DNA from: Candidatus Saccharimonadota bacterium
GTDB lineage: Bacteria > Patescibacteriota > Saccharimonadia > Saccharimonadales > SLHW01
Assembly (NCBI GenBank): GCA_050486305.1
Contig: JBJHDA010000001.1
Location: 51,071 to 115,070 of the forward strand
DNA length: 64,000 nucleotides
Direction of reading: 5' to 3'
Notes under the pieces: model-generated
Seen by the model: the letters and a program-made list of their open reading frames with translations, nothing else
Told to the model about the DNA's origin: nothing
The model's database searches: none
Shown here: positions 12,407-55,129 of the stretch, one piece after another
How the letters are laid out: every line of letters starts with the position of its first letter
Position numbering within the stretch: the stretch's first letter is position 1
Translations under genes and position numbers: made by a program

Positions 12407-12435
12407 AAAAATGCTTGCTCGGGCAAGCATTTTTA
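12407..12435 (+). terminator. Rho-independent terminator after rplU
   Basis: aaaaATGCTTGCtcggGCAAGCATttttaaa: perfect 8-bp stem, 4-nt loop and T-run. Confidence 0.8.
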
Positions 12436-12713
12436 AATGTCACGGCAAACTAAGGGTAACTTACTACATAAAACAAATGTATTCCTGTGGATAACCCCCA
12501 CACTCACCACCCAAACATTTTGTACTCACCCAGCATTACCCTTGAGCCCGTCTATCGCAAAACCAAGCAATTCTAAGCATAAGCCTCATCTGTTAGCTGT
12601 CACATAGTTATGTAATCACCACAACATTACCATCACGTCACCCTGTCAACCAGTGCGTTTTTCTGTCTGCCATACAGGGGTAAAAACCGCATACATTTCG
12701 TGTCCACTGCCTC

Positions 12714-12742
12714 TTGCCATATATAAGGTGACTTGTCATACT
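12714..12742 (+). promoter_or_regulatory. Candidate sigma-70-type promoter of giant gene 1
   Basis: TTGCCA, a 17-nt spacer, then CATACT. Spacing and the spacer motif (atat..ataagg.g) match the candidate promoter of giant gene 2. It implies a CA-rich leader of about 145 nt. Confidence 0.45.
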
Positions 12743-12894
12743 GTAGCTAGGCTTTAAAAAACAAAAACATAACCTTTCAAAAAAGCCGGCGAACAATAAA
12801 CCTTACTGCAGTTATTTCACTTAACGCTTTGACGGCGAAACAACCGCAGTAAAACAAACAAACAACTAAAACCAAAAAGGGCAGGCCGCCACTG

Positions 12895-15800
12895 ATGGCG
12901 CACCAAAAACAAAAATCACCAACAGGTCTTTCGAGACGCTTCTCCAACTACGTACTTCCACGTGGTCTTTCTGCATTCCTGCCCAAGTCCTTTGCCACCC
13001 GTGCCATTGCCTCTCTTACCCTTATCGCCGCCTTCCTCTTCTTTTCTCTTGCTAGCTTCTATTTCCTGGCTCCGGCCTTCCAGACTACTATATACGCGCA
13101 AAGCGTCCCCTCTACCCTCAACTTCCAGGCCCGCCTCCTGACTAGTTCCGGTGCAATCGTTCCCGATGGTACCTACAACGTCGAGTTCAAGCTCTACGAC
13201 CAAGAATCAGGCGGCACTGAACTCTGGACCGAAACCCGCACCTTCGACACTGACAGCAGTGACCTCCACCTCAACGTCCGCTCCGGTTATCTCTCCGTCT
13301 ATCTGGGTGACAAGACCCCGTTCCCATCCTCCATCGACTGGAACGACCAGCACTACCTCACCATGAACATCGGTGGCACCAGTGTTACCCCAACCTGGGA
13401 CGGCGAGATGACCCCACGTATCCGCCTTACCAGCGTGCCGTACGCCTTCCAGGCAGAGCAGGCCAACCAGGCACTTGACTCAGAACAGCTGCAAGGGCGT
13501 TCAGCCAGTGAGTTCGTCCAGCTCAGCCCTTCATCACAGCAGAGCGGCGGTATTAACATCTCCGGCACCGGTCAGTTTGGTAGCAACCTCTCCACCCAGG
13601 GTAACCTTACTGCCAACGGTACGCTTACCATCCAGGGCACTAGCAACTCATCCATCGCCGGCAACCTTGCCATTGGCCACACCAACCCCCAGGTCGCCCT
13701 CGATGTCGATGGCGGCGTCCGTGTTGGCAGTACTTCCGTCAACCTCTCCGGTGTCATCCGCTGGACTGGCTCTGATCTTGAAGTCTACGACGGCAGTACT
13801 TGGGTGTCTCTCACAGAAGGTAGCGGCTCCGGCGGTTCCAGTGTCGAGTCTCTGAACACCCTCACCGGCGCCCTCACCCTCCAAGGCACCACCAACCAAG
13901 TCACCGTCTCTGACGACGGCACCGACACCATCACCATCTCTCTGCCACAGGACATCAACACCACCGCAGCAGTTGAGTTCGGTAGCCTTACCACATCAGG
14001 CAACATCAGTGCTGGCGGTAATCTCAGCACAGACGGCACCCTCACTGTCACCCAATCCAGCACGTTCAACGGCAATGTCACTGTGGCCAGCGGCCAAAGC
14101 CTCCGCCTGACCGGCTCTGACACCTTCCCGGGTTCACCGGAAGAAGGGGAGCTCTACTTCCGAACTGACCTGAATCGTCTCTACATCTACGCAGACGGTC
14201 AATGGACCAACCTCCATGACACCGGCTCTGACAGCAGAACCGCCACCGCCATCGTGGCAGCCGATGACTCACCAGCCCAAGCCAAAGCCAGCGCTGACTA
14301 CGTTGCCACCGGCTCCAGTGACCAAGACACCATCAACGATGCCCTGACTGCCGCAGCTGGAGGGTATGTGTACCTGCATGAAGGAACGTACACCGTAGAC
14401 GACAGTATTGAGATACCGAATGACACTACACTGGCGGGAGCGGGCACAGGGACAGTCATTACGATTCCGGATGGGCATGATGCGAATCTAGAAGTGATTA
14501 CTAATGTTGACACCACGACGGGTACTGGCGTAACGATCCGAGACCTGAAGGTAGATGGCAATAAAGATGATCAGAATAGCGGTACAATGGACGGCATCTA
14601 TCTAGAGGGAATGGGTGGCGGCAGTGGCAGCTCGGCTCGGCAAGGCGCTGAACTGACCAACCTGACCATTGTAGACGTTCGCGGCAGAGGAATCCTGCTT
14701 GATAATAGCTCCAATAACTCTATTGTAAATAACTACCTATCCGGCAACGACAGGTTTGAGCAAATAATTTTATATCCAGACTCAAATAACAATATAATTT
14801 CGGGAAACCGCATACTCGCTGGCCAAGTCGGAATCTCTATTAGTGACAGCCGCCACAACGTCATCTCCAATAATGTTATCCAGGGCGGTACCTGGGGTAT
14901 CTATCTGCCAGCCTGGGGTAGCTCAGATTACACGACTATTTCCGGCAACAATATCTACGACCACTCTATATACGGGATCAGCGTGGAGGCCGGTGATTAC
15001 GTAACTGTTACCGGCAACACGATCCGCGGTACCTGCGCCGGCTGCGCCGGTCTCATATTCGAGGCTGATTACGGCATCATCTCCTCAAATACGTTTAATG
15101 AAGTTGGCAGCTATGAGATTTACATCCACGGCTCAAACAATAGTATTACTGGTAACCTCATTGGTGATAATAGTGCTATTTCTGCTCAAGGCATTTTCAT
15201 TAGTAGCTTTGCCAGCGACAACTACCTCTCAAATAACACTCTAAACGGCGGTGAAATTGACGATGTCGGCACCAACACCATCTACAGTAACCAAATTGGT
15301 AACAACGGCGCCATCATCAACCGTAGTGCTAACTCTACGACTATGTTCCAACTCCAAGACGCCTCAGGAGATGTCCTCTTCAATGCAGACACAGAAAACA
15401 TGAGAATCGGTATCGGTACAGACTCACCAGCCTACGCCCTGGACGTTGTCACCGCAGACGATATTGCCGCCCGCTTCTCCGGCAGGGTCATTGGAGCTGA
15501 TGCGGTGAACAATGATGAGTTCATAACTCTAGGCCAAGCCAATACTCTCTACCAAACAGCAGGTGACTACTTCCTCCAGGGTGGCAACAGCTTCGGTTCG
15601 ACAGCCACTCTTGGTACGACTGACAACAATGCTCTTGAATTTATCACCAATGACATCACACGTTTGACCATCGCTGCTGATGGCAGCACCGTTACTCTTG
15701 CTTCTGGCACTGGTCTCTTCCTGCAAGGCAACGCTACGCTTACAAATCCTGGAACTGGGTCAGGTAGCGAGCAGTTCGGCCTTAACGCATCCGCTCAGGG

Positions 15801-18800
15801 TAACAACAGCGTAGCCGTCGGCAATGCTGCCACGGCTGCCGCTCAAGATGCAGTGGCACTTGGCCAGAACAGCTATGCTGGACCGGAAAGTATTGCTATA
15901 GGCCCGTCTGCACACACAGGGGTTAACGCTTGGGGCAATGTGGCCATTGGCCCCTGGAACACTATCAGTGATGACACTTTCGAGAATATCCTTATAGGTT
16001 ACGGAGGTTCAATTTCAAGCGACGAATCAATCGGAATCGGCTCGGGTGTTGATGTACAGGGCAGCTCCAGTATCGCTATGGGGTTATTTGCTTCGACTGG
16101 GAGTGATGCTTCTGACGGAATTGCTATAGGTCGCAGCTCATATGTTGATAATTCAGTGTCGATTGCACTTGGCCGAAACGCTGAGACATTCGGACTAAAT
16201 ACGATATCTATCGGTGCTTTCTCTGGTACGGGCTCGGGAGCTACCGACAGTATCGTTATTGGTGGCTCTGGCTGGGCGTCCGGCGCCCAAAGCGTCGCGC
16301 TTGGTCAGGCAGCTGAGGTGTTTGCAGATGGTTCCACCGCACTTGGAGCCTACAGTTCAGTACAAAGCACTGCAACGGACTCAATTGCAATCGGGAATAT
16401 GGCGCGAGTTGACTCTGCTAACACTTTTGTAGCAGGCTCTCGGGACGCCCCGATTAGCACAGTCTTTTTCGGCAATGGTGAAACTGCGACTTCCGGTATC
16501 ACCCCGACCAGTTACACCATCCAAGGAACAGGCGGCAATGGTACGGACATACAGGGTGGAAATATTTCTATAGCCGGTGGCCGCGGCACGGGAACTGGAC
16601 CAGGCGGTGATATTATCTTTGAGACCGCAGCTTCCAGCGGCTCCTCAGGTACCACGCAAAACGCACTCAACGAACGTTTGCGTATCACTAGCGAAGGTGA
16701 TGTTGGTATCGGTACAGCTAGTCCTAGCTATAGGTTAGATGTTCAGGGTGGGTCTGGTGCAATTGCCCGCTTCTCCGGCCGTGTCATCGGTGCTGATGCG
16801 GTGAACACAGACGAGTTCACCACGCTGAGCCAGCTCAACGCCGTCGAAGACGCAGCCGTCCAAGGTTCCGGCACCCAAGGCCAAGTCGGCTTCTTCAATT
16901 CCAACGGAGATCTCACTGGCAGCAACAGCTTGTACTGGGACAACTCTTCTGGTGCTCTCGGCATCGGCACCAACGATCCAAACTCCTTCACCCTCCAGGT
17001 CGCTGGCTCCATCGGCCCTGACGCCAATGACACCTATGACCTTGGCTCCAGCTCCCGTCGTTGGCGTGATCTCTACCTCGGCCCTGACAGCCTCAACATC
17101 GGGACGCACACCAACAACGCCACCATGAGCTATAACACCACCACCAACCGCTTCAACTTCTCTCATGGCATCAATGTCTCCGGTACCACTGTGGCCACCT
17201 CATTCTCTGGTGACGGTGCTAACCTCACCAACCTTGATGCCGACAACATCACCACCGGCACGCTCAGTGTCTCCCGCGGCGGTACCGGCGTGGACTCCTT
17301 CACCCAGTACGGTATTCCATACGGCAACAGCACCAGCAGCATGGGTGTCACCGCTGCTGGTGTCACCGGTGAGTGTCTGACTGGCAACACCGGCAATGCG
17401 CCATCTTGGGTGGACTGTTCCATTGTCGGCGAAGGCGCTGAACCGGGTGGCACCGCTGGCGGTGACCTCTCCGGCACCTACCCGAATCCAACCGTTGCCC
17501 GAATCAACGGTGCAGCGCTTGGTACTACCACGGCTGATGCCGGCCGTATTCTCATTGGCTCCGGCAGCCAGTGGATCTCCAGAAGCTTCTCTGGCGACCT
17601 CACCGTCAGCAGTACCGGTACGACCACTCTCGCTGACACCAGCGTCTCAGCTGGTGCCTATGGCTCTGGCACTCAAGTCGCTACCTTCACGGTTGACAGC
17701 AAGGGAAGACTGACCGCTGCCGGGCAAACGACGATTGACATCAACAACCTTGGCGCTTTCATGCAGGGCGGGAACAGCTTTGGTGAGATGGCAACGCTTG
17801 GGACGAACGATAACCAAGCCCTCAGATTTATCACCAACAATACGGAGCGAATGCGTATCTTGGCTAATGGGAATGTGGGGATAGGGACGGGGAGTCCGAG
17901 CGCACCTCTGGAGGTGTCAGGAGGCTCAGGTACGAGAGTGATAATCGGCAACCCTTCTGGTGGCCACCCCACTATGGTACTTGGACGGCAGAGCGGTCAG
18001 CCAAGCATACAGAGTAATTCTGGCTGGTTTATTGCTGATGGCGGGGGAGGCACGGGTAATGCTGGACTAAACTACTGGAGTAGCGGAGACGTTATTTTGG
18101 CTAATGGCGGTGGAAACGTTGGTATTGGGACCATAAGCCCTTCAGAACCCCTTGATGTTTCAATCAGCACGTCTACATATCAAGGAATCCGATTTTCTAA
18201 TGCCGAGGAGGATGTGCGCATAGCTGTCGGCGCCTCAGGTATTGGTTACCTTAGAACATCAAGCGACAGACTGTATATAGGGGATAGTAATGCTAATAGG
18301 CTAGTGATAAGGAGCGGAAACGTTGGCATTGGTACAACAAATCCACAAGATTTATTGCATATCAACGGGGGTGATATTCGCATGTCATCACCATCACCAA
18401 GCGTTAACCTGTTTGAGACTGATACAGGGAAGAGTTGGTTTGTTGTAGCTGATGATAATAAGTTTGATGTTCGGGAGGACGGGACATCAGGATCGAATGC
18501 AAGGTTTACTATACGCGATGGTAATGTTGGTATTAATAATATAAATCCTTCTTCTACTCTGACAGTTGGCGGCAACCTAAGGTTTACTGGAGGCACGCGT
18601 CACATATTGATACCTAATGATACTCGTCTTGAATTTCGTAGCTCTTCAGGTAATCAAATTTTAGATATTCGTGATGAGGTTGGCGGCTCAAATGATCCAG
18701 GGTTGCGCTCATTAGCCACCTATGATCGCACCACAACTGCTAGTGCCAATCTGCATATTACATCTGCCGCGAACTTTTCCCGCTCCACTTCTTCCGCTCG

Positions 18801-19785
18801 CTTCAAGACAAATGTCCAAACAATTCAGTCGATTGATTACAATAAGGTGTTAGATCTAAGGCCCGTAAAGTACAACTCTCTAGGCACGGACGATGACAGC
18901 AGTACCGTATTTTATGGCTATATCGCTGAAGAGGTGGCAAAAATTGATCGCCGACTTGTACAGTGGAGCGGCCCTGGCCCTAACGCGGTAGCAGAAGGGG
19001 TAATGTATGACAGGGTTAACGCCCTCTTGTTACCGGTCGTGCGTGACAACAGAGGAAGAATCACCAGACTAGAAGTTAGGGTCTCAGATCTTCAATCAAG
19101 AGCCAACTCCCTCCAATCTCAAATCAACACCCTCAAAAACACCAAAGCCACCAAAACAGCCCACAACAATCTAAAGAACCGTGTCACCCAAGCTGAAGCT
19201 ACCCTTGGTGATCTCGTTGTTGCCTCTAGTAGCTACCTCCAAAACGGTCAAAGCGCCACCTTCTCTAGTCTTAACGTCTCCGGTCAGACCACCCTCAAGA
19301 GCCTGACGGTCACCGGTAACGCAAGCATCCAAGGCAACTTGAGTGTCGGAGGGAAGCTAACCGTAGAAACAGCCACAGTAACAGGCAACCTGACAGTTGG
19401 CGGCAGAGTACTGAGTCAGGCGACTGAGGCGCCGGAGGTGACTACTGATCTGGATGTGTTCGGTGAATCGCTTCTAGCAGAGCTTGATGGTACAGATGTC
19501 GCAGGTACGATAACACTTACTACCATCGAAAGCGATGGCGCATCACTTTTTGCTGCGCTGGATCAGGAGGAGTATGTGCTCGCCAGAGTTACTTTTACGA
19601 GCGAATACGAGCTGTTGTCGCGCGTTTCCCTGACAGCAATGAATAGTGAGGCCTCTCACCTGCGCATTTACGCTGAGCGTACTGCAGACGGCTTCATAAT
19701 AAAAACTACTGACGCACCGGATGCCGACAAAGAATACGTGTTTGACTACATAATTGTCGGTGCAGAAGCCATGACCAGCAACTAA
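12895..19785 (+). CDS. Giant envelope fibre protein 1 (2296 aa): signal/anchor helix, conserved N-domain, beta-helix, YadA-head-like repeats, tail-fibre stalk repeats, S74 intramolecular chaperone domain, coiled coil
   Basis: Uninterrupted 6.9-kb ORF. Hydrophobic helix at aa 37-60 followed by TIYA|QS. The N-domain TLNFQARLL...RIRLTSVPYAFQ is shared with the next gene. PbH1-like repeats (NNSIVNNYLSGN, ISGNRI, ISNNVIQG, ISGNNIY, VTGNTI, ITGNLI) span 14238-15290. Gly/Ala-rich head-type repeats (SVAVGNAA..AVALGQNS..SIAIGPSA) span about 15765-16440. NVGIGT..P...L.V units recur. SSARFK lies at aa 1966-1971 in a Peptidase_S74-like context. Confidence 0.85.
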   Translation: MAHQKQKSPTGLSRRFSNYVLPRGLSAFLPKSFATRAIASLTLIAAFLFFSLASFYFLAPAFQTTIYAQSVPSTLNFQARLLTSSGAIVPDGTYNVEFKLYDQESGGTELWTETRTFDTDSSDLHLNVRSGYLSVYLGDKTPFPSSIDWNDQHYLTMNIGGTSVTPTWDGEMTPRIRLTSVPYAFQAEQANQALDSEQLQGRSASEFVQLSPSSQQSGGINISGTGQFGSNLSTQGNLTANGTLTIQGTSNSSIAGNLAIGHTNPQVALDVDGGVRVGSTSVNLSGVIRWTGSDLEVYDGSTWVSLTEGSGSGGSSVESLNTLTGALTLQGTTNQVTVSDDGTDTITISLPQDINTTAAVEFGSLTTSGNISAGGNLSTDGTLTVTQSSTFNGNVTVASGQSLRLTGSDTFPGSPEEGELYFRTDLNRLYIYADGQWTNLHDTGSDSRTATAIVAADDSPAQAKASADYVATGSSDQDTINDALTAAAGGYVYLHEGTYTVDDSIEIPNDTTLAGAGTGTVITIPDGHDANLEVITNVDTTTGTGVTIRDLKVDGNKDDQNSGTMDGIYLEGMGGGSGSSARQGAELTNLTIVDVRGRGILLDNSSNNSIVNNYLSGNDRFEQIILYPDSNNNIISGNRILAGQVGISISDSRHNVISNNVIQGGTWGIYLPAWGSSDYTTISGNNIYDHSIYGISVEAGDYVTVTGNTIRGTCAGCAGLIFEADYGIISSNTFNEVGSYEIYIHGSNNSITGNLIGDNSAISAQGIFISSFASDNYLSNNTLNGGEIDDVGTNTIYSNQIGNNGAIINRSANSTTMFQLQDASGDVLFNADTENMRIGIGTDSPAYALDVVTADDIAARFSGRVIGADAVNNDEFITLGQANTLYQTAGDYFLQGGNSFGSTATLGTTDNNALEFITNDITRLTIAADGSTVTLASGTGLFLQGNATLTNPGTGSGSEQFGLNASAQGNNSVAVGNAATAAAQDAVALGQNSYAGPESIAIGPSAHTGVNAWGNVAIGPWNTISDDTFENILIGYGGSISSDESIGIGSGVDVQGSSSIAMGLFASTGSDASDGIAIGRSSYVDNSVSIALGRNAETFGLNTISIGAFSGTGSGATDSIVIGGSGWASGAQSVALGQAAEVFADGSTALGAYSSVQSTATDSIAIGNMARVDSANTFVAGSRDAPISTVFFGNGETATSGITPTSYTIQGTGGNGTDIQGGNISIAGGRGTGTGPGGDIIFETAASSGSSGTTQNALNERLRITSEGDVGIGTASPSYRLDVQGGSGAIARFSGRVIGADAVNTDEFTTLSQLNAVEDAAVQGSGTQGQVGFFNSNGDLTGSNSLYWDNSSGALGIGTNDPNSFTLQVAGSIGPDANDTYDLGSSSRRWRDLYLGPDSLNIGTHTNNATMSYNTTTNRFNFSHGINVSGTTVATSFSGDGANLTNLDADNITTGTLSVSRGGTGVDSFTQYGIPYGNSTSSMGVTAAGVTGECLTGNTGNAPSWVDCSIVGEGAEPGGTAGGDLSGTYPNPTVARINGAALGTTTADAGRILIGSGSQWISRSFSGDLTVSSTGTTTLADTSVSAGAYGSGTQVATFTVDSKGRLTAAGQTTIDINNLGAFMQGGNSFGEMATLGTNDNQALRFITNNTERMRILANGNVGIGTGSPSAPLEVSGGSGTRVIIGNPSGGHPTMVLGRQSGQPSIQSNSGWFIADGGGGTGNAGLNYWSSGDVILANGGGNVGIGTISPSEPLDVSISTSTYQGIRFSNAEEDVRIAVGASGIGYLRTSSDRLYIGDSNANRLVIRSGNVGIGTTNPQDLLHINGGDIRMSSPSPSVNLFETDTGKSWFVVADDNKFDVREDGTSGSNARFTIRDGNVGINNINPSSTLTVGGNLRFTGGTRHILIPNDTRLEFRSSSGNQILDIRDEVGGSNDPGLRSLATYDRTTTASANLHITSAANFSRSTSSARFKTNVQTIQSIDYNKVLDLRPVKYNSLGTDDDSSTVFYGYIAEEVAKIDRRLVQWSGPGPNAVAEGVMYDRVNALLLPVVRDNRGRITRLEVRVSDLQSRANSLQSQINTLKNTKATKTAHNNLKNRVTQAEATLGDLVVASSSYLQNGQSATFSSLNVSGQTTLKSLTVTGNASIQGNLSVGGKLTVETATVTGNLTVGGRVLSQATEAPEVTTDLDVFGESLLAELDGTDVAGTITLTTIESDGASLFAALDQEEYVLARVTFTSEYELLSRVSLTAMNSEASHLRIYAERTADGFIIKTTDAPDADKEYVFDYIIVGAEAMTSN

Positions 19786-20303
19786 AGAGTAGTCAAATAA
19801 TAGGATTGATGAGCCGCTGTTAGGTTGACTGTAGCAACTGAAGCGTCAACCTGTAATTGTGTAGCGAGAATTTGTTTAATACAGAAGTTAGTCCATGTAT
19901 TCAAAATTAACGGCTTACTAAGACGCATAAAGCAGAGCCAGCAAGAGAGTACAGGAGGAAGGAGGCTAAAGGCGCCTAAGCTAACGATTAAAGCAACTTA
20001 TTGACTCAGGCGATAAGTGAAAACTATGAGTTATCACGTTATCAAAGGGCACTGGTTTTGTACGCAAAAATAGTAAAATATGGTATTTTGCTCAAAATGC
20101 TTGTGGATAACTCATCATGCAATTATATGTATGTAGATTAAAAAACATCACTTTACATCTAATATTTATATTCTGAACACATGTCCACTGACAGTAAAAT
20201 AAGCTTAAAAGCAATATAACGTTATTATTTATACATCGTTATTAATATAATTTTTACGGAATTATCGGCTATCTGACTGCATAAAAAAAGTATACGTAAC
20301 GAC

Positions 20304-20332
20304 TTGAACCATATGCTATAAGGGGTCATAAT
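20304..20332 (+). promoter_or_regulatory. Candidate sigma-70-type promoter of giant gene 2
   Basis: TTGAAC, a 17-nt spacer, then CATAAT. It is paralogous in layout to 12714-12742 and implies a CA-rich leader of about 145 nt ending in caaacaaacaactaaa. Confidence 0.45.
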
Positions 20333-20483
20333 CCGTACTGTGTACCTGCTAAGCAGGGGGTCGTATCCCTGCAAGGCAACAAAAAGGAACACAAACACGA
20401 TTTTCTAAAACAAAAGTAATGCTCCGGCCGCGGATCATGAACAAAGAAAATCAAACAAACAACTAAATCAAACAAACACATAA

Positions 20484-23400
20484 ATGCCAAAGACAATCCC
20501 CAGCGTCGGCAGGCACGCTTATTTGCGTATTCCTGTAAAACTATGGCAACTACTGCAACATATTGTAGTGGGGTTGGTTCGTAGTAGCCTTTCTCAGAAC
20601 AAATCAAGTGCAGTAGGTGGTATTCTTGTTGCCTTCACACTGTTCCTGATGATTTTCGGAACGGTATTTTTGCATTTTCAGAAAACTATATACGCGAGCG
20701 ATACGCTTAACTTCCAAGCCCGTCTTCTGACCAGTAGCGGATCGGTAGCACCAGATGGGGTGTACAACGTTGAGTTCAAGCTGTATGACCAAGAGTCAGG
20801 TGGCACAGAGCTCTGGACCGAGACTCGATTGACGACTGATAGCAGTGACCTGCAAGTGACTGTACGCAGCGGTTACTTGAGTGTTTACCTCGGAGACAAG
20901 ACAGGTTTCCCAGGTAGTATCGACTGGAACGACCAGCTTTACCTGACCATGAACATCGGCGGTACGAGCGGTACTCCGGCATGGGATGGCGAGATGACAC
21001 CGAGGATACGGCTTACAAGCGTACCGTTTGCGTTCCAAGCAGACCGGGCAAACGTAGCGACTGAGCTTGAAGATCGGCAGGGCAGCAACACTGGTTCGCT
21101 TCGATTCGGCGCCTTAACGAACGATCGAAATATTCTTTTACCGAACTCTAGCGGTACGGTTGCGCTACTTCAGACTGCACAGACATTCTCCGGGGCAATA
21201 ACCTTCAGCGCTTCTGGTACCGGCTTAACCGTAACGAACAGTGCGATTATCGGGGGCAGCCTGACTGTTGATGGGGATACGCTTCGTGTAAATTCGTCTA
21301 CCAGCCGCGTCGGTATTGGCACGACCTCGCCTGACGCACGACTTACCGTAACTGGAGGAGCGGACGAGGTGCAGCTTAGAGTCGGGGCGAACGGCGTACA
21401 GACGAGCGATATCTTCCAGATTACCGATAGTACAAATAACGTCCTGGCTGGCTTCAACAGTCTCGGACAGCTCTTTTTGCGCGACTCCGGTTTCCGTGCA
21501 ACGCTTGAAACTGCCACGCTAACGGACGATCATTCCTACGTTCTCCCTGATGTTGGTGGTACATTTTGTTTGACGAGTGGTAACTGTTCTGGTGTTGGCG
21601 GCCAGGTTGGCGGAACTGGTACAGCTGGTCGGATTGCGATGTTTACCGCTGTCTCTGATATAGCTGATTCGTTCTTATCACAAGACGCAGACAGCATCAT
21701 CATTGATGCTGGCAGAAATCTAGCAGTTAACAACAACACGTTGTTCGTAGATGGTGACACTGGCAGAGTAGGCATCGGTACTACCTCACCTGAATACTTG
21801 CTGGATGTGCAAGACGGAACAGGCACAGTTGCGCGGTTTAGTGGTAGGGTAATCGGTGGCGAGGCAGTTAATTCTGACGAGTTCGTAACCCTTGCGCAGC
21901 TTGAAAGTGCGGTCGGTGCGACGGGAGCTTATGTGCTGGGCGGTAATGCGTTCGGTGAGCTTGCGGTTCTTGGTACCACCGACAATTATGGGCTCCAGTT
22001 TGTCACGAATGGGCAGGCTCGCCTTACCATAGCGAACAGCGGGGAAATCACTGCGGCCAACGCTCTAAGTGTGGACGGACAGCTTACGGTTACCAGCGGT
22101 GGAGCAAATATTACTGGCAATGTTGCTATTACCGGCGGACTGACGGTCACTGATGCTTCAACGTTTGAAAGTGCTGTGACGATAACTGACGGCGGACTGG
22201 ATGTTACAGGGCCAGTTATACTCCAGGGCAATACTGAAATAACCGATGCGAACACGTTCACCGTCGGCACGGGAGCTACCACGCTTGGTGGAACCCTCAG
22301 TGTCGACGGTATCGCTACCTTTAATAACGAAGTTATCATTGCTGCAGAGCAGTCTATTCGTTTGGTCGGCGGTGACACGGCTAGCCGGCCAGCGTCACCA
22401 GAGGAAGGCACCCTCTACTTCGACACACAGACGAACCGACTGCTTGTCTATGCAAATGGCAAGTGGCAGGCGGATCGTTCTATTGCCACCGTTATTGTTG
22501 CTCCCGAGGACGCTACTCAGGCCGCCAAAGACAGCGCGGACTTTGTTGTTCCTGACAGTGCCGATGATGCTCAGGATACGCTAAATGCTGCAATAGCGAC
22601 GCTGCCAAGCTCTGGCGGAACTGTTTATCTTCTCGAAGGTACCTACCTAATCTCTGGCTCTATTGAGCTCCCTGACAATACCACGTTAGCAGGCGCGGGT
22701 ACTGCGACTGTAATTAAGGTAAGAGACAGTCACGATGCAAGCTTCAATGCCCTCGAAAACGCTGACGCGACCGGTGGCAACAACAACATCACCCTTCGCG
22801 ATTTCGCGTTGGACGGTAATCGCAGCGAGCAAGCCGCCGGTGAGATGAATGGTATTTTCCTTGAAAACGTCGGTAGCGACACCGGTGGGGACGGGTTAAA
22901 CGGGATTACTATCACAAATGTTTCAGTTAATAACTTTAGCCATCGAGGGCTCACAGCAGTCAATTTGCGCAACAGTACGATAACCGGCTCTACCTTTAGA
23001 AACAACGACGACACTGGTATCGCACTCGGCGGTTCACTGGTGGGCCACAACAACATAGTCGATAACCTTGTGCAAGGTAACCGTGAAATGGGTATACACG
23101 TCGAAGGAGGTGGCTTTAACAACATATCAAACAACATGGTGCAGGGAAACCGCCGAACTGGTATTCGTGTGGACGCACCAGGCAACCTTGTAGCTGACAA
23201 CACAATCAAAGACAACGGCCTAACTTCACGCAGCCTTTATATAAATAGTGACGGTAATACTGTTACTGGCAATAGGGTACTTAACGGAAGTGCTATAGGT
23301 ATTGGGGTAGAAGGGGACAACAACCTTATATCAGGCAACACCGTGGCAGAAAATGCACTTCGAGGTATCGAGGTAAACGGCGACAGCAATACAGTTACTG

Positions 23401-26400
23401 CGAACACCGTTCGCGGCAATGGTGAGGCAGCTATATCTATTATCAGCTCTTCGAACGGTACGCTTATTACTTCGAACAGGATTTCCAACATAAATACTGA
23501 GCCGGCCATCGATATTGTCAGCGGTGCTGAAAATACTTACCTATCAAATAATACTTACAGTGGAAGTGCTGATCCATTCATTGTTGATGCAAGCAGTACA
23601 ACGATTTATGCAAATCAAATCGGCAACAATGGCGCTATCATCAACCGTACTGCTGACAGTGAAGCCATGTTCCAGCTCCAGGCAAGTAACGGCGACGTGC
23701 TCTTCAACGCCGACACCCAGAACATGCGCATAGGTATTGGTACTGACGCTCCGGAATATGCTCTTGATGTGGTTACGGCCGATGCTATCAGCGCCCGATT
23801 TAGCGGCCGTGTCATCGGTGCTGCTGCGGTGAATGCCAATGAATTCGTCACCCTCGCCCAGCTCGAATCTGCAACGGGTGTTGTTGGCAGCGCCTTCCTC
23901 CAGGGTGGTAACGCCTTCGATGAAGCGGCAGTGCTTGGTACGACTGATGCGTATGGCCTCAACCTTATAACTGACGGCACCACCAGACTTGCTATATCTG
24001 AAGTCGGCAACATAACGCTTGCCGATGACGTCCTTTATGTAGACGCAGTAAACGAAAGAGTACAAATTGGTTCAAGCGACAGTATTGACGCGCGACTGAG
24101 TGTGATCGGCGGTGCCGATCAGACTCAGTTGCTTGTCCGTGCTCACGCTACCCAAACTAGTCCGCTGGTGTTGCTCCAGGACAGTACGGGTGGTGAGCTA
24201 GCACGGCTGAACGCAACTGACAGTAGTTTGTACCTAGGATTTGAAGCTGGTGGGTCGACCGCTTCAGGAGATAACAATATAGGAATAGGCGCGAGCGCTC
24301 TAGGCGCTGTCTCGACGGGGGCAGCGAATACGACGCTGGGTTCTGGGGCGCTCGCATCTGTTTCTATAGGCAGCAACAACACGGCTGTTGGCTACAACGC
24401 TGGAAATCTCCTCACAGGTTCCAATAACATATTACTTGGATACGAGGCTGGCAGCAACATAGAAGACGGTAGCAACAACATTATTATTGGCTACAGCCTG
24501 GGCGCTTCAAGTCCGAACGTCAGCAATGAACTTAGAATAGGCGGCATACTACAAGGTAACCTTGATACGCTTGAGCTAACCTTTAACGGAGATGTCACAG
24601 TTACCGGCGGACTCACCGTTCAAGACGGGTTAGTTGTTACTGCTGGTGGCATAGATGTAACAGGCGACAGCACGATTGATGGCACACTTGATGTTACTGG
24701 TGAGGCAACGTTTGATGACGGTGTAACGATTACTGACGGTGGCATAGACGTAACAGGCGACAGCACGATCACTGGCAACCTTGGCCTAGACGGTAACTTC
24801 CAGATATTCGGTACCGGCACATTCACGAGCGGCACCGGTGCAGTTACCCTGCAAGGCGACACAGAAATAACCGGTGCAAATACCTTCACGGTTGGCACTG
24901 GTGCAACCACACTTGGCGGCAGTCTCCAGGTTGATGGCCAAACAACCTTCAACGATACCGTTACGGTAAACGCTGGTACTGGAATCGTCGCTAGCTTCTC
25001 AGGCAGGGTAGCTGGTCAAGATGCAGTCGAGCAAGACGAATTTACTACCCTCGCACAGCTGCAATCTGCCGTCGGTGCAGTCAACGCCTTCCTCCAAGGC
25101 GGTAACGCTTTCGATGAAGCAGCGGTGCTTGGTACGACTGACAACGAAGACCTACAGTTTATTACTAATAACGAAGTCCGACTTACGGTAACTGCCGGTG
25201 GAGACATAACAATAGCCAATGCTCTCGCAGTAGGTGGTGATCTCACGGTAACTGGAGTGGCAACCTTCGAGGACGGCCTTACGGTAACTGCTGGTGGCAT
25301 AGACGTCATTGGCGACAGTGCGATTACCGGTAATCTTGATATTACTGGCGACATCACAGCAACTGGCGACGCAGTCTTTGCTGCTGAGACTGATTCTACG
25401 ACAACCTTCCAGATTCAAAATGCAACTGGTGCCGCTCTCTTCAACGCCGACACCCAGAACATGCGCATAGGTATTGGTACTGACGCTCCGGAATATGCTC
25501 TTGATGTGGTTACGGCCGATGCTATCAGCGCCCGATTTAGCGGCCGTGTCATCGGTGCTGCTGCGGTGAATGCCAATGAATTCGTCACCCTCGCCCAGCT
25601 CGAATCTGCAACGGGTGTTGTTGGCAGCGCCTTCCTCCAGGGTGGTAACGCCTTCGATGAAGCGGCAGTGCTTGGTACGACTGATGCGTATGGCCTCAAC
25701 CTTATAACTGACGGCACCACCAGACTTGCTATATCTGAAGTCGGCAACATAACGCTTGCCGATGACGTCCTTTATGTAGACGCAGTAAACGAAAGAGTAC
25801 AAATTGGTTCAAGCGACAGTATTGACGCGCGACTGAGTGTGATCGGCGGTGCCGATCAGACTCAGTTGCTTGTCCGTGCTCACGCTACCCAAACTAGTCC
25901 GCTGGTGTTGCTCCAGGACAGTACGGGTGGTGAGCTAGCACGGCTGAACGCAACTGACAGTAGTTTGTACCTAGGATTTGAAGCTGGTGGGTCGACCGCT
26001 TCAGGAGATAACAATATAGGAATAGGCGCGAGCGCTCTAGGCGCTGTCTCGACGGGGGCAGCGAATACGACGCTGGGTTCTGGGGCGCTCGCATCTGTTT
26101 CTATAGGCAGCAACAACACGGCTGTTGGCTACAACGCTGGAAATCTCCTCACAGGTTCCAATAACATATTACTTGGATACGAGGCTGGCAGCAACATAGA
26201 AGACGGTAGCAACAACATTATTATTGGCTACAGCCTGGGCGCTTCAAGTCCGAACGTCAGCAATGAACTTAGAATAGGCGGCATACTACAAGGTAACCTT
26301 GATACGCTTGAGCTAACCTTTAACGGAGATGTCACAGTTACCGGCGGACTCACCGTTCAAGACGGGTTAGTTGTTACTGCTGGTGGCATAGATGTAACAG

Positions 26401-28439
26401 GCGACAGCACGATTGATGGCACACTTGATGTTACTGGTGAGGCAACGTTTGATGACGGTGTAACGATTACTGACGGTGGCATAGACGTAACAGGCGACAG
26501 CACGATCACTGGCAACCTTGGCCTAGACGGTAACTTCCAGATATTCGGTACCGGCACATTCACGAGCGGCACCGGTGCAGTTACCCTGCAAGGCGACACA
26601 GAAATAACCGGTGCAAATACCTTCACGGTTGGCACTGGTGCAACCACACTTGGCGGCAGTCTCCAGGTTGATGGCCAAACAACCTTCAACGATACCGTTA
26701 CGGTAAACGCTGGTACTGGAATCGTCGCTAGCTTCTCAGGCAGGGTAGCTGGTCAAGATGCAGTCGAGCAAGACGAATTTACTACCCTCGCACAGCTGCA
26801 ATCTGCCGTCGGTGCAGTCAACGCCTTCCTCCAAGGCGGTAACGCTTTCGATGAAGCAGCGGTGCTTGGTACGACTGACAACGAAGACCTACAGTTTATT
26901 ACTAATAACGAAGTCCGACTTACGGTAACTGCCGGTGGAGACATAACAATAGCCAATGCTCTCGCAGTAGGTGGTGATCTCACGGTAACTGGAGTGGCAA
27001 CCTTCGAGGACGGCCTTACGGTAACTGCTGGTGGGGCTGACATAACCGGTGATGTGTCAATTACTGGTGAACTAAGCGTGACTGGCCAAACGACATTTGA
27101 GGACGCTATCACCGTAAATGCTGGCACCGGTATTGTCGCCAGCTTCTCCGGACGTGTTTCCGGCGCGGATGCAGTCGAGCAAGACGAATTTACTACCCTC
27201 GCACAATTGCAATCTGCCGTCGGTGCAGTCAACGCCTTCCTCCAAGGCGGTAACGCTTTTGATGAAGCAGCAGTGCTTGGTACAACTGACAACTACAGTC
27301 TCCAATTCATTACCAACAATGAAGCCCGTCTTGCTATCGCCAATGACGGTGATGTTGCTATCGCCAACGCCCTGAGTGTCGGTGGACAGCTCACTGTCGT
27401 TTCTGGCGGTGCCGACATCACTGGAGATGTCCTCATAACAGGCGAGCTAACCGTTACAGGTGTGACAACCTTTACCGATATAATATTTGTCGATGCTGGC
27501 ACCGGTATTGTCGCCAGCTTCTCCGGACGTGTTTCCGGCGCGGATGCAGTCGAGCAAGACGAATTTGTGACCCTTGGTCAGGTTAGCAGCGCTACGGCTA
27601 ATGTCTTCACCCAACAGGGCAATAACTTTGGCGAACTTGCCGTCCTCGGTACCACTGACGACTACGGCCTCCAATTCATTACCAACAACGAAGTTCGGCT
27701 TTCCATTAACCATGATGGATCACTATCGAGTGTACAAATAGGTGACGGCTCCGACACAAGTGGGTCATCAACACTTCTGACGCTTGACCGTTCTGCGGGA
27801 CCACCTGTAGCCGACGACGATGCTTATCTTGGCTCAATGTACTATGACACCACAATCGGACGAATCCAGTGTTACGAAGCTGGCGGATGGGGCTCTTGTG
27901 GCTCTCCACCAGATAACATCGTTAATCTTGACCCAGAGTATGCCGGCGCTGTTCTCAACGGCAGTGGTATCGGCACCATGACTGCAGACTTCTGTGCGAA
28001 TGAATCGGGCGTGCTTTCAGTTAACTCCTCATTATGTGAAGAGGGTGAAGCGCTTAACTTCTACCGCTGGGCATCACCTCAGGCAACACAGCAAACCTAC
28101 GGTATCTACATTACATACCAGCTGCCTTCAACCTTTGACGGATTTGCCAGCGATGAAACCGTACAATTGACAGCTCGCCGTGACAACAGTAATGCCGAGG
28201 TAAGTTACGAAATGTTCCGTAACCAGGACGGTCAGATTACCCAGTGTGGCACTGAAACAGTTGTAACGACAGTCGACAATGTGTGGCAAACCGTCGGAAT
28301 CAATGGCGATGAGGCAACTGACTGTGGCTTTACCGCAGCATCTGCTAATGGCTACGTCATATTCAAGATAAATATGAAGGCAAGTAATAACGCGAATGCT
28401 TATTCAAGCACATTAACTTTCACGACGACTGGTCGATAG
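20484..28439 (+). CDS. Giant envelope fibre protein 2 (2651 aa): signal/anchor helix, conserved N-domain, beta-helix, seven FSGRV stalk modules including a large internal duplication, Cys-containing C-terminal tip domain
   Basis: Uninterrupted 8-kb ORF. Hydrophobic helix at aa 44-64 followed by TIYA|SD. The N-domain is roughly 85 percent identical to giant 1 by eye. Beta-helix repeats (ITGSTFRNN, VDNLVQGN, ISNNMVQGN, VADNTIKDN, VTGNRVLNG, ISGNTVAEN, VTANTVRGN, ITSNRISN) span about 22480-23610. A 579-aa period duplication is present. Confidence 0.85.
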   Translation: MPKTIPSVGRHAYLRIPVKLWQLLQHIVVGLVRSSLSQNKSSAVGGILVAFTLFLMIFGTVFLHFQKTIYASDTLNFQARLLTSSGSVAPDGVYNVEFKLYDQESGGTELWTETRLTTDSSDLQVTVRSGYLSVYLGDKTGFPGSIDWNDQLYLTMNIGGTSGTPAWDGEMTPRIRLTSVPFAFQADRANVATELEDRQGSNTGSLRFGALTNDRNILLPNSSGTVALLQTAQTFSGAITFSASGTGLTVTNSAIIGGSLTVDGDTLRVNSSTSRVGIGTTSPDARLTVTGGADEVQLRVGANGVQTSDIFQITDSTNNVLAGFNSLGQLFLRDSGFRATLETATLTDDHSYVLPDVGGTFCLTSGNCSGVGGQVGGTGTAGRIAMFTAVSDIADSFLSQDADSIIIDAGRNLAVNNNTLFVDGDTGRVGIGTTSPEYLLDVQDGTGTVARFSGRVIGGEAVNSDEFVTLAQLESAVGATGAYVLGGNAFGELAVLGTTDNYGLQFVTNGQARLTIANSGEITAANALSVDGQLTVTSGGANITGNVAITGGLTVTDASTFESAVTITDGGLDVTGPVILQGNTEITDANTFTVGTGATTLGGTLSVDGIATFNNEVIIAAEQSIRLVGGDTASRPASPEEGTLYFDTQTNRLLVYANGKWQADRSIATVIVAPEDATQAAKDSADFVVPDSADDAQDTLNAAIATLPSSGGTVYLLEGTYLISGSIELPDNTTLAGAGTATVIKVRDSHDASFNALENADATGGNNNITLRDFALDGNRSEQAAGEMNGIFLENVGSDTGGDGLNGITITNVSVNNFSHRGLTAVNLRNSTITGSTFRNNDDTGIALGGSLVGHNNIVDNLVQGNREMGIHVEGGGFNNISNNMVQGNRRTGIRVDAPGNLVADNTIKDNGLTSRSLYINSDGNTVTGNRVLNGSAIGIGVEGDNNLISGNTVAENALRGIEVNGDSNTVTANTVRGNGEAAISIISSSNGTLITSNRISNINTEPAIDIVSGAENTYLSNNTYSGSADPFIVDASSTTIYANQIGNNGAIINRTADSEAMFQLQASNGDVLFNADTQNMRIGIGTDAPEYALDVVTADAISARFSGRVIGAAAVNANEFVTLAQLESATGVVGSAFLQGGNAFDEAAVLGTTDAYGLNLITDGTTRLAISEVGNITLADDVLYVDAVNERVQIGSSDSIDARLSVIGGADQTQLLVRAHATQTSPLVLLQDSTGGELARLNATDSSLYLGFEAGGSTASGDNNIGIGASALGAVSTGAANTTLGSGALASVSIGSNNTAVGYNAGNLLTGSNNILLGYEAGSNIEDGSNNIIIGYSLGASSPNVSNELRIGGILQGNLDTLELTFNGDVTVTGGLTVQDGLVVTAGGIDVTGDSTIDGTLDVTGEATFDDGVTITDGGIDVTGDSTITGNLGLDGNFQIFGTGTFTSGTGAVTLQGDTEITGANTFTVGTGATTLGGSLQVDGQTTFNDTVTVNAGTGIVASFSGRVAGQDAVEQDEFTTLAQLQSAVGAVNAFLQGGNAFDEAAVLGTTDNEDLQFITNNEVRLTVTAGGDITIANALAVGGDLTVTGVATFEDGLTVTAGGIDVIGDSAITGNLDITGDITATGDAVFAAETDSTTTFQIQNATGAALFNADTQNMRIGIGTDAPEYALDVVTADAISARFSGRVIGAAAVNANEFVTLAQLESATGVVGSAFLQGGNAFDEAAVLGTTDAYGLNLITDGTTRLAISEVGNITLADDVLYVDAVNERVQIGSSDSIDARLSVIGGADQTQLLVRAHATQTSPLVLLQDSTGGELARLNATDSSLYLGFEAGGSTASGDNNIGIGASALGAVSTGAANTTLGSGALASVSIGSNNTAVGYNAGNLLTGSNNILLGYEAGSNIEDGSNNIIIGYSLGASSPNVSNELRIGGILQGNLDTLELTFNGDVTVTGGLTVQDGLVVTAGGIDVTGDSTIDGTLDVTGEATFDDGVTITDGGIDVTGDSTITGNLGLDGNFQIFGTGTFTSGTGAVTLQGDTEITGANTFTVGTGATTLGGSLQVDGQTTFNDTVTVNAGTGIVASFSGRVAGQDAVEQDEFTTLAQLQSAVGAVNAFLQGGNAFDEAAVLGTTDNEDLQFITNNEVRLTVTAGGDITIANALAVGGDLTVTGVATFEDGLTVTAGGADITGDVSITGELSVTGQTTFEDAITVNAGTGIVASFSGRVSGADAVEQDEFTTLAQLQSAVGAVNAFLQGGNAFDEAAVLGTTDNYSLQFITNNEARLAIANDGDVAIANALSVGGQLTVVSGGADITGDVLITGELTVTGVTTFTDIIFVDAGTGIVASFSGRVSGADAVEQDEFVTLGQVSSATANVFTQQGNNFGELAVLGTTDDYGLQFITNNEVRLSINHDGSLSSVQIGDGSDTSGSSTLLTLDRSAGPPVADDDAYLGSMYYDTTIGRIQCYEAGGWGSCGSPPDNIVNLDPEYAGAVLNGSGIGTMTADFCANESGVLSVNSSLCEEGEALNFYRWASPQATQQTYGIYITYQLPSTFDGFASDETVQLTARRDNSNAEVSYEMFRNQDGQITQCGTETVVTTVDNVWQTVGINGDEATDCGFTAASANGYVIFKINMKASNNANAYSSTLTFTTTGR
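23700..25297. repeat. Direct repeat copy 1 (1598 bp) inside giant gene 2
   Basis: Identical to 25437-27034 at every position I compared, including both boundaries and several internal 60-nt lines. The offset is 1737 bp (3 x 579), so it is in frame. Confidence 0.9.
25437..27034. repeat. Direct repeat copy 2 (1598 bp) inside giant gene 2
   Basis: See copy 1. The copies are separated by a unique 139-bp segment (25298-25436). Identity breaks at 23699/25436 and at 25298/27035. Confidence 0.9.
27118..27191. repeat. 74-bp exact direct repeat, copy 1 (FSGRVSGADAVEQDEF module core)
   Basis: atgctggcaccggtattgtcgccagcttctccggacgtgtttccggcgcggatgcagtcgagcaagacgaattt recurs exactly at 27493-27566. The offset is 375 bp (125 aa). 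Confidence 0.85.
27493..27566. repeat. 74-bp exact direct repeat, copy 2
   Basis: See 27118-27191. Confidence 0.85.
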
Positions 28440-54169: not shown

Positions 54170-55129
54170 ATGGCAAAGAGAGCAAACACCAAGAAGCAGG
54201 TGGGCACGGCTTCGAAAGCACGCGCTAAGAAAACGAGTGCGGCTTCTACGACTAAGAAAAGAACCACAAAAACAAGTGCGGCGAAAACAAAGCGAAGCAC
54301 GACAAAAAAACCAACCCGAGCAAAAGCAACAAAGAAAACAACAAAACAAGCGGACATCAATCAAGTTATTGCAACGCTAAAAGTTAAGCTTCGCGGTTTG
54401 CGCGGGCTACACGCCTTGTCTGCAGCGGTCTTCGCAGCACTTCTAGCGGTTGTTTATACGTTTATGGAGGCAGTAGAACGAAGTGTAGTCGTCGGGTATA
54501 CGGCAACCGATGCATTGCGAGATGATGTATTGGCACCGGCAGTACATAACGTGCTGACCGTTGATGTTCGTCACCTTATCGCAGCAATCTTAGCGGTCGG
54601 GCTCGTCTATAGCGTCTATATCGCAACCCGAGGCTGGGAGACATATAATTCTCGGGCGAACAAAGGAGTGCTCGTGAGCCGATGGGTGCTTGCGGCTGTT
54701 CTCGGTGTGTTGGCGCTTAAGCTTACCGCGCTATTGCTCGGAGTATATGACTTGAGCTTTATTAAGCTCCTGGGACTTATCTTGCTTGGCGCAAGCTTCT
54801 TAGCGTACCAGGCAAATAGAGAGACAGGGGTAAAGCGTAAGGCAACGCTATTTTTGACAGCAGTTGTCGGCAGTGCTGTCGTATTTCTGACGCTCGCAGC
54901 GTTCGTCGCATTCAGTATGTTGTACGGAACAACCTTGCCGCTTCACATGTATGTAGCTGCAGATATTTTTGCACTCGCTCTGTTGGCGTATGCGGTAAAC
55001 CAGCTATTTAGCTTGAAGAAGCGCAAAGGCTTTACGCAGCCGGAAATCGTTGAGCGCAATTACGTGGTTATCACGACCACTGCAACCCTGCTGTTCGTGG
55101 TAACACTCGTGCTTGGATCATTAGCATAA
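54170..55129 (+). CDS. Seven-helix membrane protein with histone-H1-like K/T/A-rich N-terminal tail
   Basis: The N-terminal 60 aa are AKRANTKKQVGTASKARAKKTSAASTTKKRTTKTSAAKTKRSTTKKPTRAKATKKTTK. Seven hydrophobic segments follow. Confidence 0.65.
   Translation: MAKRANTKKQVGTASKARAKKTSAASTTKKRTTKTSAAKTKRSTTKKPTRAKATKKTTKQADINQVIATLKVKLRGLRGLHALSAAVFAALLAVVYTFMEAVERSVVVGYTATDALRDDVLAPAVHNVLTVDVRHLIAAILAVGLVYSVYIATRGWETYNSRANKGVLVSRWVLAAVLGVLALKLTALLLGVYDLSFIKLLGLILLGASFLAYQANRETGVKRKATLFLTAVVGSAVVFLTLAAFVAFSMLYGTTLPLHMYVAADIFALALLAYAVNQLFSLKKRKGFTQPEIVERNYVVITTTATLLFVVTLVLGSLA

Follow-up and report, generated by a model that had tools for sequence, protein, structure and literature searches.

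How are two giant, paralogous fibre genes of a host-attached bacterium transcribed, and how is their translation started? This question is raised by a 64,000-nt stretch, here called the window, of contig JBJHDA010000001.1 from a Candidatus Saccharimonadota bacterium, in which two such genes (genes 1 and 2) follow each other on the same strand. To our knowledge, almost nothing is known about gene control in Saccharibacteria, the only widely cultivated bacteria of the candidate phyla radiation (CPR), which live attached to host bacteria. A preliminary description of the window had proposed that both genes share a promoter and an equally long, CA-rich leader poor in Shine-Dalgarno (SD) sequences, and with these an expression programme. 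We compared the regions upstream of both genes with those of their homologs, using 80 loci from species-representative genomes and four loci with the closest relatives; family counts were made over 83 homologous loci. L084 is the syntenic orthologue of gene 1 (IleRS, L21, one open reading frame (ORF) and the giant gene), with L082 and L083 as further copies of the same locus, while L081 and L001 are orthologues of gene 2, the leader of L001 running into the contig end.

The homologous giants carry the same promoter type, which supports the shared programme, and they also have the same type of leader. The finding is real and broader than first noted: what was observed are the elements themselves, how strongly and where they are enriched across the family, their retention in orthologues and, by prediction, the folds and accessibility, and the conserved layout is the robust part. 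The least robust details of the preliminary description were the exact motif, the equal leader length, the spacer similarity and the role given to ribosomal protein S1. The positions of all features are collected in Table 1.

An A/C-rich start region throughout the fibre-gene family

Both whole leaders contain 67% A+C, and their last 45 nt reach 78% in gene 1 and 87% in gene 2, compared with 50% for the window, which bears out the A/C richness reported for both genes. Of all intergenic 30-mers in the 64 kb, just two reach 87% A+C, and these are the tracts of the fibre genes. In 78 homologous loci the median A+C at positions -40 to -1 was 0.775, against 0.50 in 70 neighbouring ORFs (p=3e-17), and in a larger control set just one ORF among 240 reached 0.8. 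The family base profile at -20 to -1 was 55% A, 25% C, 7% G and 13% T. This bias fades by about -60 upstream and continues for about 20 nt into the gene, where 51–61% of codons 2–7 encode K, N, T, Q, H or P, the six amino acids that have all-A/C codons; at these residues 77% of the codons in positions 2–7 are pure A/C, against 55% in the gene body. Since the bias continues into codons 2–7, the constraint spans the length of a 30S footprint. The predicted probability of being unpaired at -25 to +12 was 0.67 in the family and 0.42 in the controls (p=2e-23). An unstructured A/C stretch adjoining the start codon, as expected of an A/C-rich enhancer or standby site, is present according to the predicted folds.

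SD-like 5-mers were found in none of the 83 loci and SD-like 4-mers in five, which does not indicate SD-led initiation from a purine-rich, GGAGG-like core at 5–10 nt before the start; for gene 2 the reported lack of an SD was confirmed, as no SD-like 4-mer precedes it. Nor do the fibre mRNAs look leaderless: this would need a -10 element no more than about 12 nt away from the start codon, and the two are separated by 152 and 151 nt in the window genes and by 41 nt or more in the family. Among the other genes of the window, SD-like motifs precede roughly half and a leaderless start is suggested for roughly a quarter, so that the organism mixes at least three initiation modes. Leaderless-looking starts, with a TAnnnT-type -10 at 4–12 nt before the start codon, were seen in 9 of 41 window genes (starts at 304, 33964, 47617, 52620, 53798, 54170, 55188, 59229 and 60044).

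The 16-mer CAAACAAACAACTAAA had been placed before both genes, correctly for gene 2 (20452-20467) but one base off for gene 1, at which it occupies 12855-12870 and not 12854-12869. A degenerate third copy lies at 20469-20484, and when matches with up to 3 mismatches were counted, 0 of 100 shuffles gave as many. At the orthologous loci, however, the motif itself did not hold, as the exact 16-mer is lineage-specific and the 16-mer and its parts are limited to the window and L081; the part ACAACTAAA was found in 3 of the 83 loci and CAAACAAACAAC in the window only. None of the tract positions is strongly specified across the family. The conserved feature of the tract is its composition and not a word.

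Among the control ORFs, one alone has such an A/C-rich leader (L059:2639-2680 on the minus strand; gene 1098-2639). It is divergent from the fibre gene of its locus and encodes a 513-aa product with a CarboxypepD_reg/Ig-like domain. This leader type may extend to other surface proteins.

Promoter, leader folds and the upstream box

The -35 and -10 hexamers and their 17-nt spacers were read directly from the sequence of both genes, as had been described, and they have the form of a sigma-70-type promoter (TTGnnn and nAnnnT at 17 +/- 1 nt) that occurs above chance and is kept in orthologues. Within 400 nt upstream, the pattern TTGnnn-N16-18-nATAnT was present in 60 of the 83 loci, compared with 11.5 in shuffled sequences (maximum 18) and 14 when the reverse strand was scanned. 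Almost all -10 elements read (C/G)ATA(C/A)T, which covers the CATACT and CATAAT of the window, the spacer has 17 nt in 42 of 50 family sites, and a C stands directly before TTG (-1) in 80% of them. An A/T run at -20 to -14 relative to TTG and the word GCATA about 25 nt upstream are also family-wide and together resemble an UP element; in genes 1 and 2 alike, GCATA lies 25 nt upstream of the -35. When gene 1 was aligned with L082 and L084, and gene 2 with L081, the promoter formed an island of identity with diverging flanks: identity was at background level from the upstream box described below to the promoter, rose at the -35 and -10 and stayed high throughout the gene-2 leader. At the position equivalent to the gene-2 promoter, L081 has TTGCAT-17-CATACT. 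A literature search for transcription start sites or SD usage in Saccharibacteria returned nothing specific.

Two other parts of the proposed promoter likeness fared less well. A distance of 152 nt between the -10 and the start codon had been reported for both genes; it is 152 nt in gene 1 but 151 nt in gene 2, and in the orthologues it is 69 nt (L084), 68 nt (L082), 151 nt (L081) and 187 nt up to the contig end (L001), with a range of 41–199 nt across the family. As leader length is not conserved, the near-equal leaders of genes 1 and 2 are a coincidence. The spacers, which had been called similar, have only TATAAGG in common, at offsets 5 nt apart, and the gene-2 spacer differs in L081, so that this likeness counts for nothing.

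The leaders had also been likened to CA-rich unstructured ones; their last ~40 nt are predicted to be open, but conserved hairpins are predicted in their 5′ parts. The gene-2 leader is predicted to fold into two domains followed by ~48 unpaired nt that include the AUG (z=-3.4), and the same fold was obtained for L081 (z=-4.05) and L001 (z=-4.1). The consensus fold of the three sequences has 36 predicted pairs, 15 of them with a double change, and an invariant loop GGUCGUAU. The gene-1 leader differs from its orthologues by an insertion of ~85 nt that brought in the second hairpin and the 16-mer. A stem starts 7–9 nt after the -10 in 26 of 50 loci (52%), compared with 14% of control positions, and for this reason transcription likely starts at the foot of the 5′-terminal hairpin. 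Two conserved 5′ hairpins, together with the conserved word AAACCAATACAAA near the ATG, characterise a subgroup of ten species (L020, L039, L041, L043, L054, L058, L063, L072, L073 and L076). In this subgroup, hairpin 2 has in its 3′ arm the word ATTGGTT, which is complementary to a nearby AACCAA as well as to a conserved AACCAAT adjacent to the start codon, so that the start region could conceivably be closed by an alternative pairing.

No Rfam match at the gathering score was found in the window or in 15 loci; with E up to 5, five sub-threshold chance matches were obtained in the intergenic region of gene 1 and none in that of gene 2. When metagenomes were scanned for the hairpin pattern of gene 2 (GGGGTCGTATCC-N-ACAAAAAGG), the two matches (L085 and L086) were unrelated and due to chance, and no orthologue was added. 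We also considered a leader-peptide attenuator, as the gene-2 leader holds a 15-codon upstream ORF, MLRPRIMNKENQTNN, at 20419-20466 that stops at a TAA inside the 16-mer. It was rejected, since this ORF has no start codon in L081 or L001 and gene 1 lacks one in that frame.

The most unexpected result was a feature missed in the preliminary description. The 9-mer TGTGGATAA, with the extended form gcYTGTGGATAAcT, has just two exact copies in the window, one in front of each fibre gene, and what is new is that this box, which by its letters resembles a perfect DnaA box, recurs about 200 bp upstream of the promoter at dozens of homologues. It was exact and in gene orientation in 47 of the 83 loci and had at most one mismatch in 69 (the usual variant being TGTGGAAAA), while the exact reverse orientation was seen in four; no exact copy was found elsewhere in the 838 kb of strand-bases of the loci. 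The distance between the box and the -35 is 182–228 nt in 47 of the 50 loci with both elements, and 198–203 nt in about 30. It is not related to leader length (r=-0.01), which varies from 44 to 199 nt in those 50 loci.

The DNA between the box and the promoter is poorly conserved, yet it has two GTWG-N(8-10)-ACWAC elements at fixed places, about 88 nt apart, and an ACAGG word. In eight loci the first of these elements is replaced by the terminator hairpin of the upstream gene. When the box-to-(-35) region of 47 sequences was folded with RNAalifold (plus strand), no pairs were obtained, and arms such as GTAG/CAAC do not covary. We rejected a structured RNA of ~200 bp on these grounds, and the lack of a plus-strand fold and of arm covariation favours DNA sites; binding of proteins to these elements is the likeliest explanation. 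We also rejected that the box serves an alternative sigma factor as its -10 (GCCGATAA for sigma-28), as no partner stands upstream of it at a fixed spacing. An oriC, for which clustered boxes with an AT-rich unwinding element and a switch in GC skew are expected, was likewise rejected: the boxes are single and form no cluster, the one-mismatch count is at chance level, and GC skew stays positive along almost all of the window without switching strand. No convincing small ORF was found between the box and the promoter, and neither upstream region matched the genomes of E. coli or phages in a DNA similarity search.

The box of gene 1 begins 48 nt past the hairpin that follows the L21 gene, and the order of terminator and then box was also seen at many other loci.

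Proposed working and rival explanations

We think it probable, with some reserve, that these elements form a class-wide conserved expression cassette for giant, N-terminally anchored beta-helix fibre genes, in which initiation would be SD-independent on an unstructured A/C tract. The cassette would begin with the TGTGGA(T/A)AA box, followed by ~200 bp of poorly conserved DNA with the two GTWG-N-ACWAC elements at fixed places, an A/T-rich block like an UP element, a housekeeping-type promoter cTTGnnn-17-(C/G)ATA(C/A)T, a variable leader (~35–190 nt) that opens with a stable hairpin and finally an almost pure A/C tract of ~40 nt that abuts the start codon and goes on through codons 2–7. Under this proposal the promoter would be regulated and probably strong, and the 5′-terminal stem-loops would shield a very long mRNA (7–21 kb) from decay that depends on the 5′ end. 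Since the tract is without G it should be unable to pair, leaving about -40 to +20 single-stranded, so that the 30S subunit could load and find the AUG without SD pairing. The tract would then be a natural A/C-rich enhancer or standby site and may also clear the region of spurious SD, AUG and GUG sequences, while the box and the GTWG-N-ACWAC elements would bind one or more regulators that co-ordinate all fibre paralogues.

A further-reaching version, which we hold to be rather doubtful, would regard the box, the two GTWG-N-ACWAC elements and the core promoter as a rigid architecture of ~200 bp in a class-wide fibre regulon that is read by DnaA or another box-binding protein. Expression of the giant fibres, which would contact the host, might in that case be tied to the stage of replication or of the cell cycle in these epibionts, with wrapped DNA or a loop of set length as a conceivable link, and the A/C tract would be a dedicated SD-independent mode.

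Several points weigh against the proposed cassette. In the window alone the promoter pattern is not significant (5 occurrences against 2.1 expected), and 23 of the 83 loci have no match to the simple pattern; the promoter becomes convincing only through comparison between genomes. As for initiation, Saccharibacteria retain the anti-SD, the leader of gene 1 has one SD-like motif, an AAGG at 14 nt before its ATG, and the family shows no enrichment of a Kozak-like A at -3 (36%). The unpaired probability for gene 1 is 0.54 and its last 20 nt can fold over the AUG, which makes it a weaker example of the tract than gene 2. With three sequences only, the covariation in the gene-2 leader is suggestive. 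The S1 mechanism of E. coli may not be transferable here. Finally, the transcription start, promoter strength, initiation mode, mRNA stabilisation and regulator binding are what we infer from the elements. In gene 1, a small hairpin (CGCCA-CUGA-UGGCG, 12884-12899) overlaps the AUG in a 20-nt G/C-rich stretch that is absent from L082 and L084.

S1 itself, to which the preliminary description had assigned the enhancement, is a doubtful participant, because the S1 proteins of CPR bacteria are short, most having 3–4 S1 domains (PMC9297842), whereas enhancement of the E. coli type would call for a ribosome-bound, six-domain S1 that binds the leader. Even for E. coli a part of S1 in this has not been established. 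A Pfam scan of window genes showed no S1 gene among those covered.

Three rival accounts, in which the tract is targeted by a small RNA or protein, the leader loads Rho or carries antitermination, or the promoter is more distal, each match where the tract lies and how far it reaches less well than the cassette does. The tract might mainly serve as the landing site of a trans-acting regulator, either a small RNA with a G/U-rich seed or an RNA-binding protein, which would switch all fibre genes by occluding the start, with enhancer activity being secondary. Such a target is expected to be common to a whole regulon, as the tract is to all paralogues and orthologues, the CA-rich enhancers of Salmonella are also target sites of GcvB (PMC3879156), and the subgroup word AAACCAATACAAA is complementary to ATTGGTT in the same leader. 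Nevertheless, composition and no defined sequence is kept, neither strand of the 64 kb has a G/U-rich complementary stretch, and the bias enters the coding region in the manner of a ribosome footprint; we consider a role of this kind, although compatible with our best explanation, to be unlikely. The extreme gene length, the excess of C over G in a tract predicted to be unpaired and, in the gene-2 lineage, conserved hairpins with the invariant loop GGUCGUAU would suit a leader that loads Rho and carries in its 5′ hairpins a processive antitermination signal for genes of 7–8 kb, as in RfaH- or LoaP-dependent operon leaders. A Rho site is C-rich, G-poor, at least 70 nt long and has many YC dinucleotides. 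The tract is G-poor as well, but it is dominated by A (55–67% A, 20–27% C), has few YC, measures only ~40–60 nt and shares its place with the ribosome site; that it reaches right up to the ATG and enters codons 2–7 suits translation rather than Rho loading. With no ops-like or other known antitermination RNA, no Rfam match and hairpins that vary between lineages, we find this leader function very improbable.

The named hexamers may also not be the active promoter, in which case transcription would begin at a more distal point, close to the TGTGGATAA box or to the GTWG-N-ACWAC elements, and the leader would have 350–400 nt. These upstream elements are indeed more strongly conserved than the hexamers, whose pattern lacks significance within the window, and in eight loci the box lies between the stop codon of the upstream gene and its terminator and is hence transcribable. 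In those same eight loci, however, the terminator separates the box from the fibre gene; a partner element at constant spacing, with which the box could act as a -10 or -35, is lacking, and no conserved RNA structure was found from the box to the -35 (plus strand). Identity climbs sharply at the proposed promoter and the stems start 7–9 nt past the proposed -10, so a distal start appears quite improbable to us. Low-complexity sequence that arose by chance or neutrally, for instance by (CAAA)n slippage, and has no function deserves hardly any credit: the tract is of low complexity and the exact 16-mer is not kept beyond the closest relatives, but the tract is family-wide, specific for position and strand (p 1e-17 to 1e-23 against neighbouring genes) and enters the coding sequence. 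Such an origin is already contradicted by the comparison between loci.

Genomic setting and known systems

The window is a compact bacterial chromosome segment from Saccharibacteria (CPR) that carries paralogous giant fibre genes. Before the giant ORFs it encodes YqeY, adenylate kinase, Map, FtsA, FtsZ, NrdR, a class II ribonucleotide reductase, IleRS and L21; the three giant ORFs are followed by ParA/ParB, a signal peptidase, a LytR-CpsA-Psr protein, HtrA, PrmC, RF1, S2, a short EF-Ts and others. Gene 3 is probably co-transcribed with gene 2.

Table 1 Features of the two fibre-gene loci in the window
Feature	Position	Strand	Remarks
Hairpin AAAAATGCTTGC-tcgg-GCAAGCATTTTT	12409-12438		perfect; like a bidirectional terminator, after the L21 gene; missed by a simple terminator scan
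Box TGTGGATAA, gene 1	12486..12494	+	228 nt before -35; perfect DnaA-box consensus on opposite strand
IR2, GTWG-N-ACWAC type, gene 1	12611..12629	+	kept in position in the 47-region box-to-(-35) alignment; weaker than at most loci
UP-element-like block GCATACATTT...ctc, gene 1	12689..12713	+	adjoins -35; kept in L082 and L084
Putative sigma-70-type promoter, gene 1	12714..12742	+	TTGCCA 12714-12719, 17-nt spacer tatataaggtgacttgt, CATACT 12737-12742
5′-terminal stem AGGCUU...AAGCC, gene 1	12750..12787	+	predicted; A/C-rich loop; 8 nt after -10; same stem in L082 and L084
Second leader hairpin, gene 1	12803..12852	+	predicted; within the ~85-nt insertion absent from L082 and L084
A/C-rich tract, gene 1	12847..12894	+	ends at ATG; includes the 16-mer; last 20 nt G/C-rich
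Giant fibre gene 1	12895..19785	+	2296 aa; Beta_helix, NosD, YadA_head and Peptidase_S74 domains (Pfam)
Box TGTGGATAA, gene 2	20102..20110	+	202 nt before -35; perfect DnaA-box consensus on opposite strand
IR1-type element TGTAG-N-CATCAC, gene 2	20132..20151	+	30 nt after box start
IR2-type element CGTTA-N-ACATCG, gene 2	20220..20238	+	88 nt after IR1
UP-element-like block GCATAAAAAAA, gene 2	20279..20303	+	25 nt before -35, same offset as gene 1
Putative sigma-70-type promoter, gene 2	20304..20332	+	TTGAAC 20304-20309, 17-nt spacer, CATAAT 20327-20332
5′-terminal hairpin domain, gene 2	20339..20393	+	predicted; conserved loop GGUCGUAU, covarying stem
Second leader domain, gene 2	20399..20452	+	predicted; stem GAUUUUCU/AGAAAAUC around CCGGCCGCGG hairpin
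G-poor A/C-rich tract, gene 2	20447..20483	+	up to ATG; predicted unpaired, probability 0.85; no SD
Giant fibre gene 2	20484..28439	+	2651 aa; right-handed beta-helix/NosD domains; paralogue of gene 1
Gene 3	28459-33900		19-nt gap after gene 2

The proteins of genes 1 and 2 are 41–48% identical over their aligned segments, with a closely similar N-terminal domain, while their intergenic regions are barely alignable beyond the shared motifs. Peptidase_S74, a chaperone domain, and YadA-head repeats are found in gene 1. The N-terminal domain matched only proteins of Saccharibacteria/Saccharimonadales metagenome-assembled genomes, most of them truncated by contig ends, and since the N-terminal M-x-K-Q-T-P... 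is common to the family, both annotated ATGs are supported. Gene 2 has an internal tandem duplication (23691-25184 and 25428-26921, period 1737 bp, 99–100% identity) besides many older repeat copies, which it has in common with gene 1.

Other observations concern neighbouring sequences and the homologous loci. A heliorhodopsin-like gene at 54170-55129 (Pfam PF18761, E=1.5e-10) is apparently leaderless. In the gene-1 orthologues, repeated units with the inverted repeat CATACTTTTGT...ACAAAAGTATG (L084:1380-1680 and L082:120-165) lie inside the ORF called between L21 and the fibre gene, and may represent a small repeat element rather than a gene. The contigs of L001, L049, L074 and L077 have clear Saccharibacteria-type fibre genes, yet they are labelled Balneolia, Limnocylindria, Bacillota and Burkholderiales; these labels are probably binning errors.

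The layout provides a cis-regulatory grammar for what are probably the main surface fibres, with a promoter type, a putative 5′ stabiliser, a proposed SD-independent start and a box at a fixed distance. This grammar is open to comparison between genomes, in which the box makes it simple to search for all members of the presumed regulon. As candidates for strong expression parts, the promoter and leader may be of use in the new genetic systems of Saccharibacteria (PMC10633639). Outside enterobacteria, the leader would also be a conserved example from nature of SD-independent initiation on an A/C-rich sequence, and it could show whether a long S1 is needed.

Taken one by one, the elements resemble known systems to different degrees. 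Promoters with UP elements, such as those of the rrn type, have an A/T-rich block at about -40 to -60 before a near-consensus TTG and a 17-nt spacer, as is the case here; the fibre promoters have the conserved GCATA word in addition, and contact with the C-terminal domain of the RNA polymerase alpha subunit (alpha-CTD) is putative. The upstream box is an exact match, on the minus strand, to the 9-mer consensus TTATCCACA of the DnaA box, which also acts as a transcription-factor site. It differs, however, in being single and not clustered, in standing not at an origin but at a set distance of ~235 bp before the presumed start, and in having the common variant TGTGGAAAA; the likeness is one of sequence, and DnaA is only a candidate binder. 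Long structured leaders with 5′ stabiliser hairpins are known from mRNAs of S-layer and outer-surface proteins (ompA, Lactobacillus slpA and Bacillus aprE). They would share with the fibre leaders a stem-loop at the very 5′ end of the mRNA, a strong promoter and a surface protein that is presumably abundant, but they close with a normal SD, and stabilisation by the stem of the fibre leader is putative.

For the start region, initiation without an SD (proposed for the fibre genes), low structure near the start and few other AUG triplets nearby are common to the fibre genes and to Bacteroidia, whose start regions are A-rich with A at -3 as a positive determinant (PMC6847099). In Bacteroidia this mode is genome-wide and the anti-SD is sequestered, whereas here it would be specific to one gene family in a genome where SD-like motifs precede about half of the genes and about a quarter appear leaderless, and A at -3 is not enriched in that family. 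CA-repeat 5′ tails act as ribosome standby sites (PMC5934652), which likewise have a single-stranded CA-type stretch of at least 16 nt by the initiation site that is proposed to hold the 30S subunit; in contrast to them, the AUG of the gene-2 type is predicted to be open, with no structure to overcome, and only gene 1 has a small hairpin at its AUG for which a standby site could be of use. CA-rich, ACA and ACAA elements enhance translation or replace the SD in enterobacteria, as in gltI, dppA and yifK (PMC3879156). These (ACAA)n-type enhancers and the tobacco mosaic virus (TMV) omega-type leader share with the fibre tract an unstructured A/C-rich sequence just before the start, the lack of an SD in the gene-2 type and the small importance of the exact position of the element. 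Compared with the enterobacterial enhancers, the fibre tract lies at the 3′ end of a structured leader and in a CPR host whose S1 is probably short (3–4 domains, PMC9297842), and its enhancer activity is putative, by sequence likeness; it is natural, class-wide for one gene family and enters the first codons.

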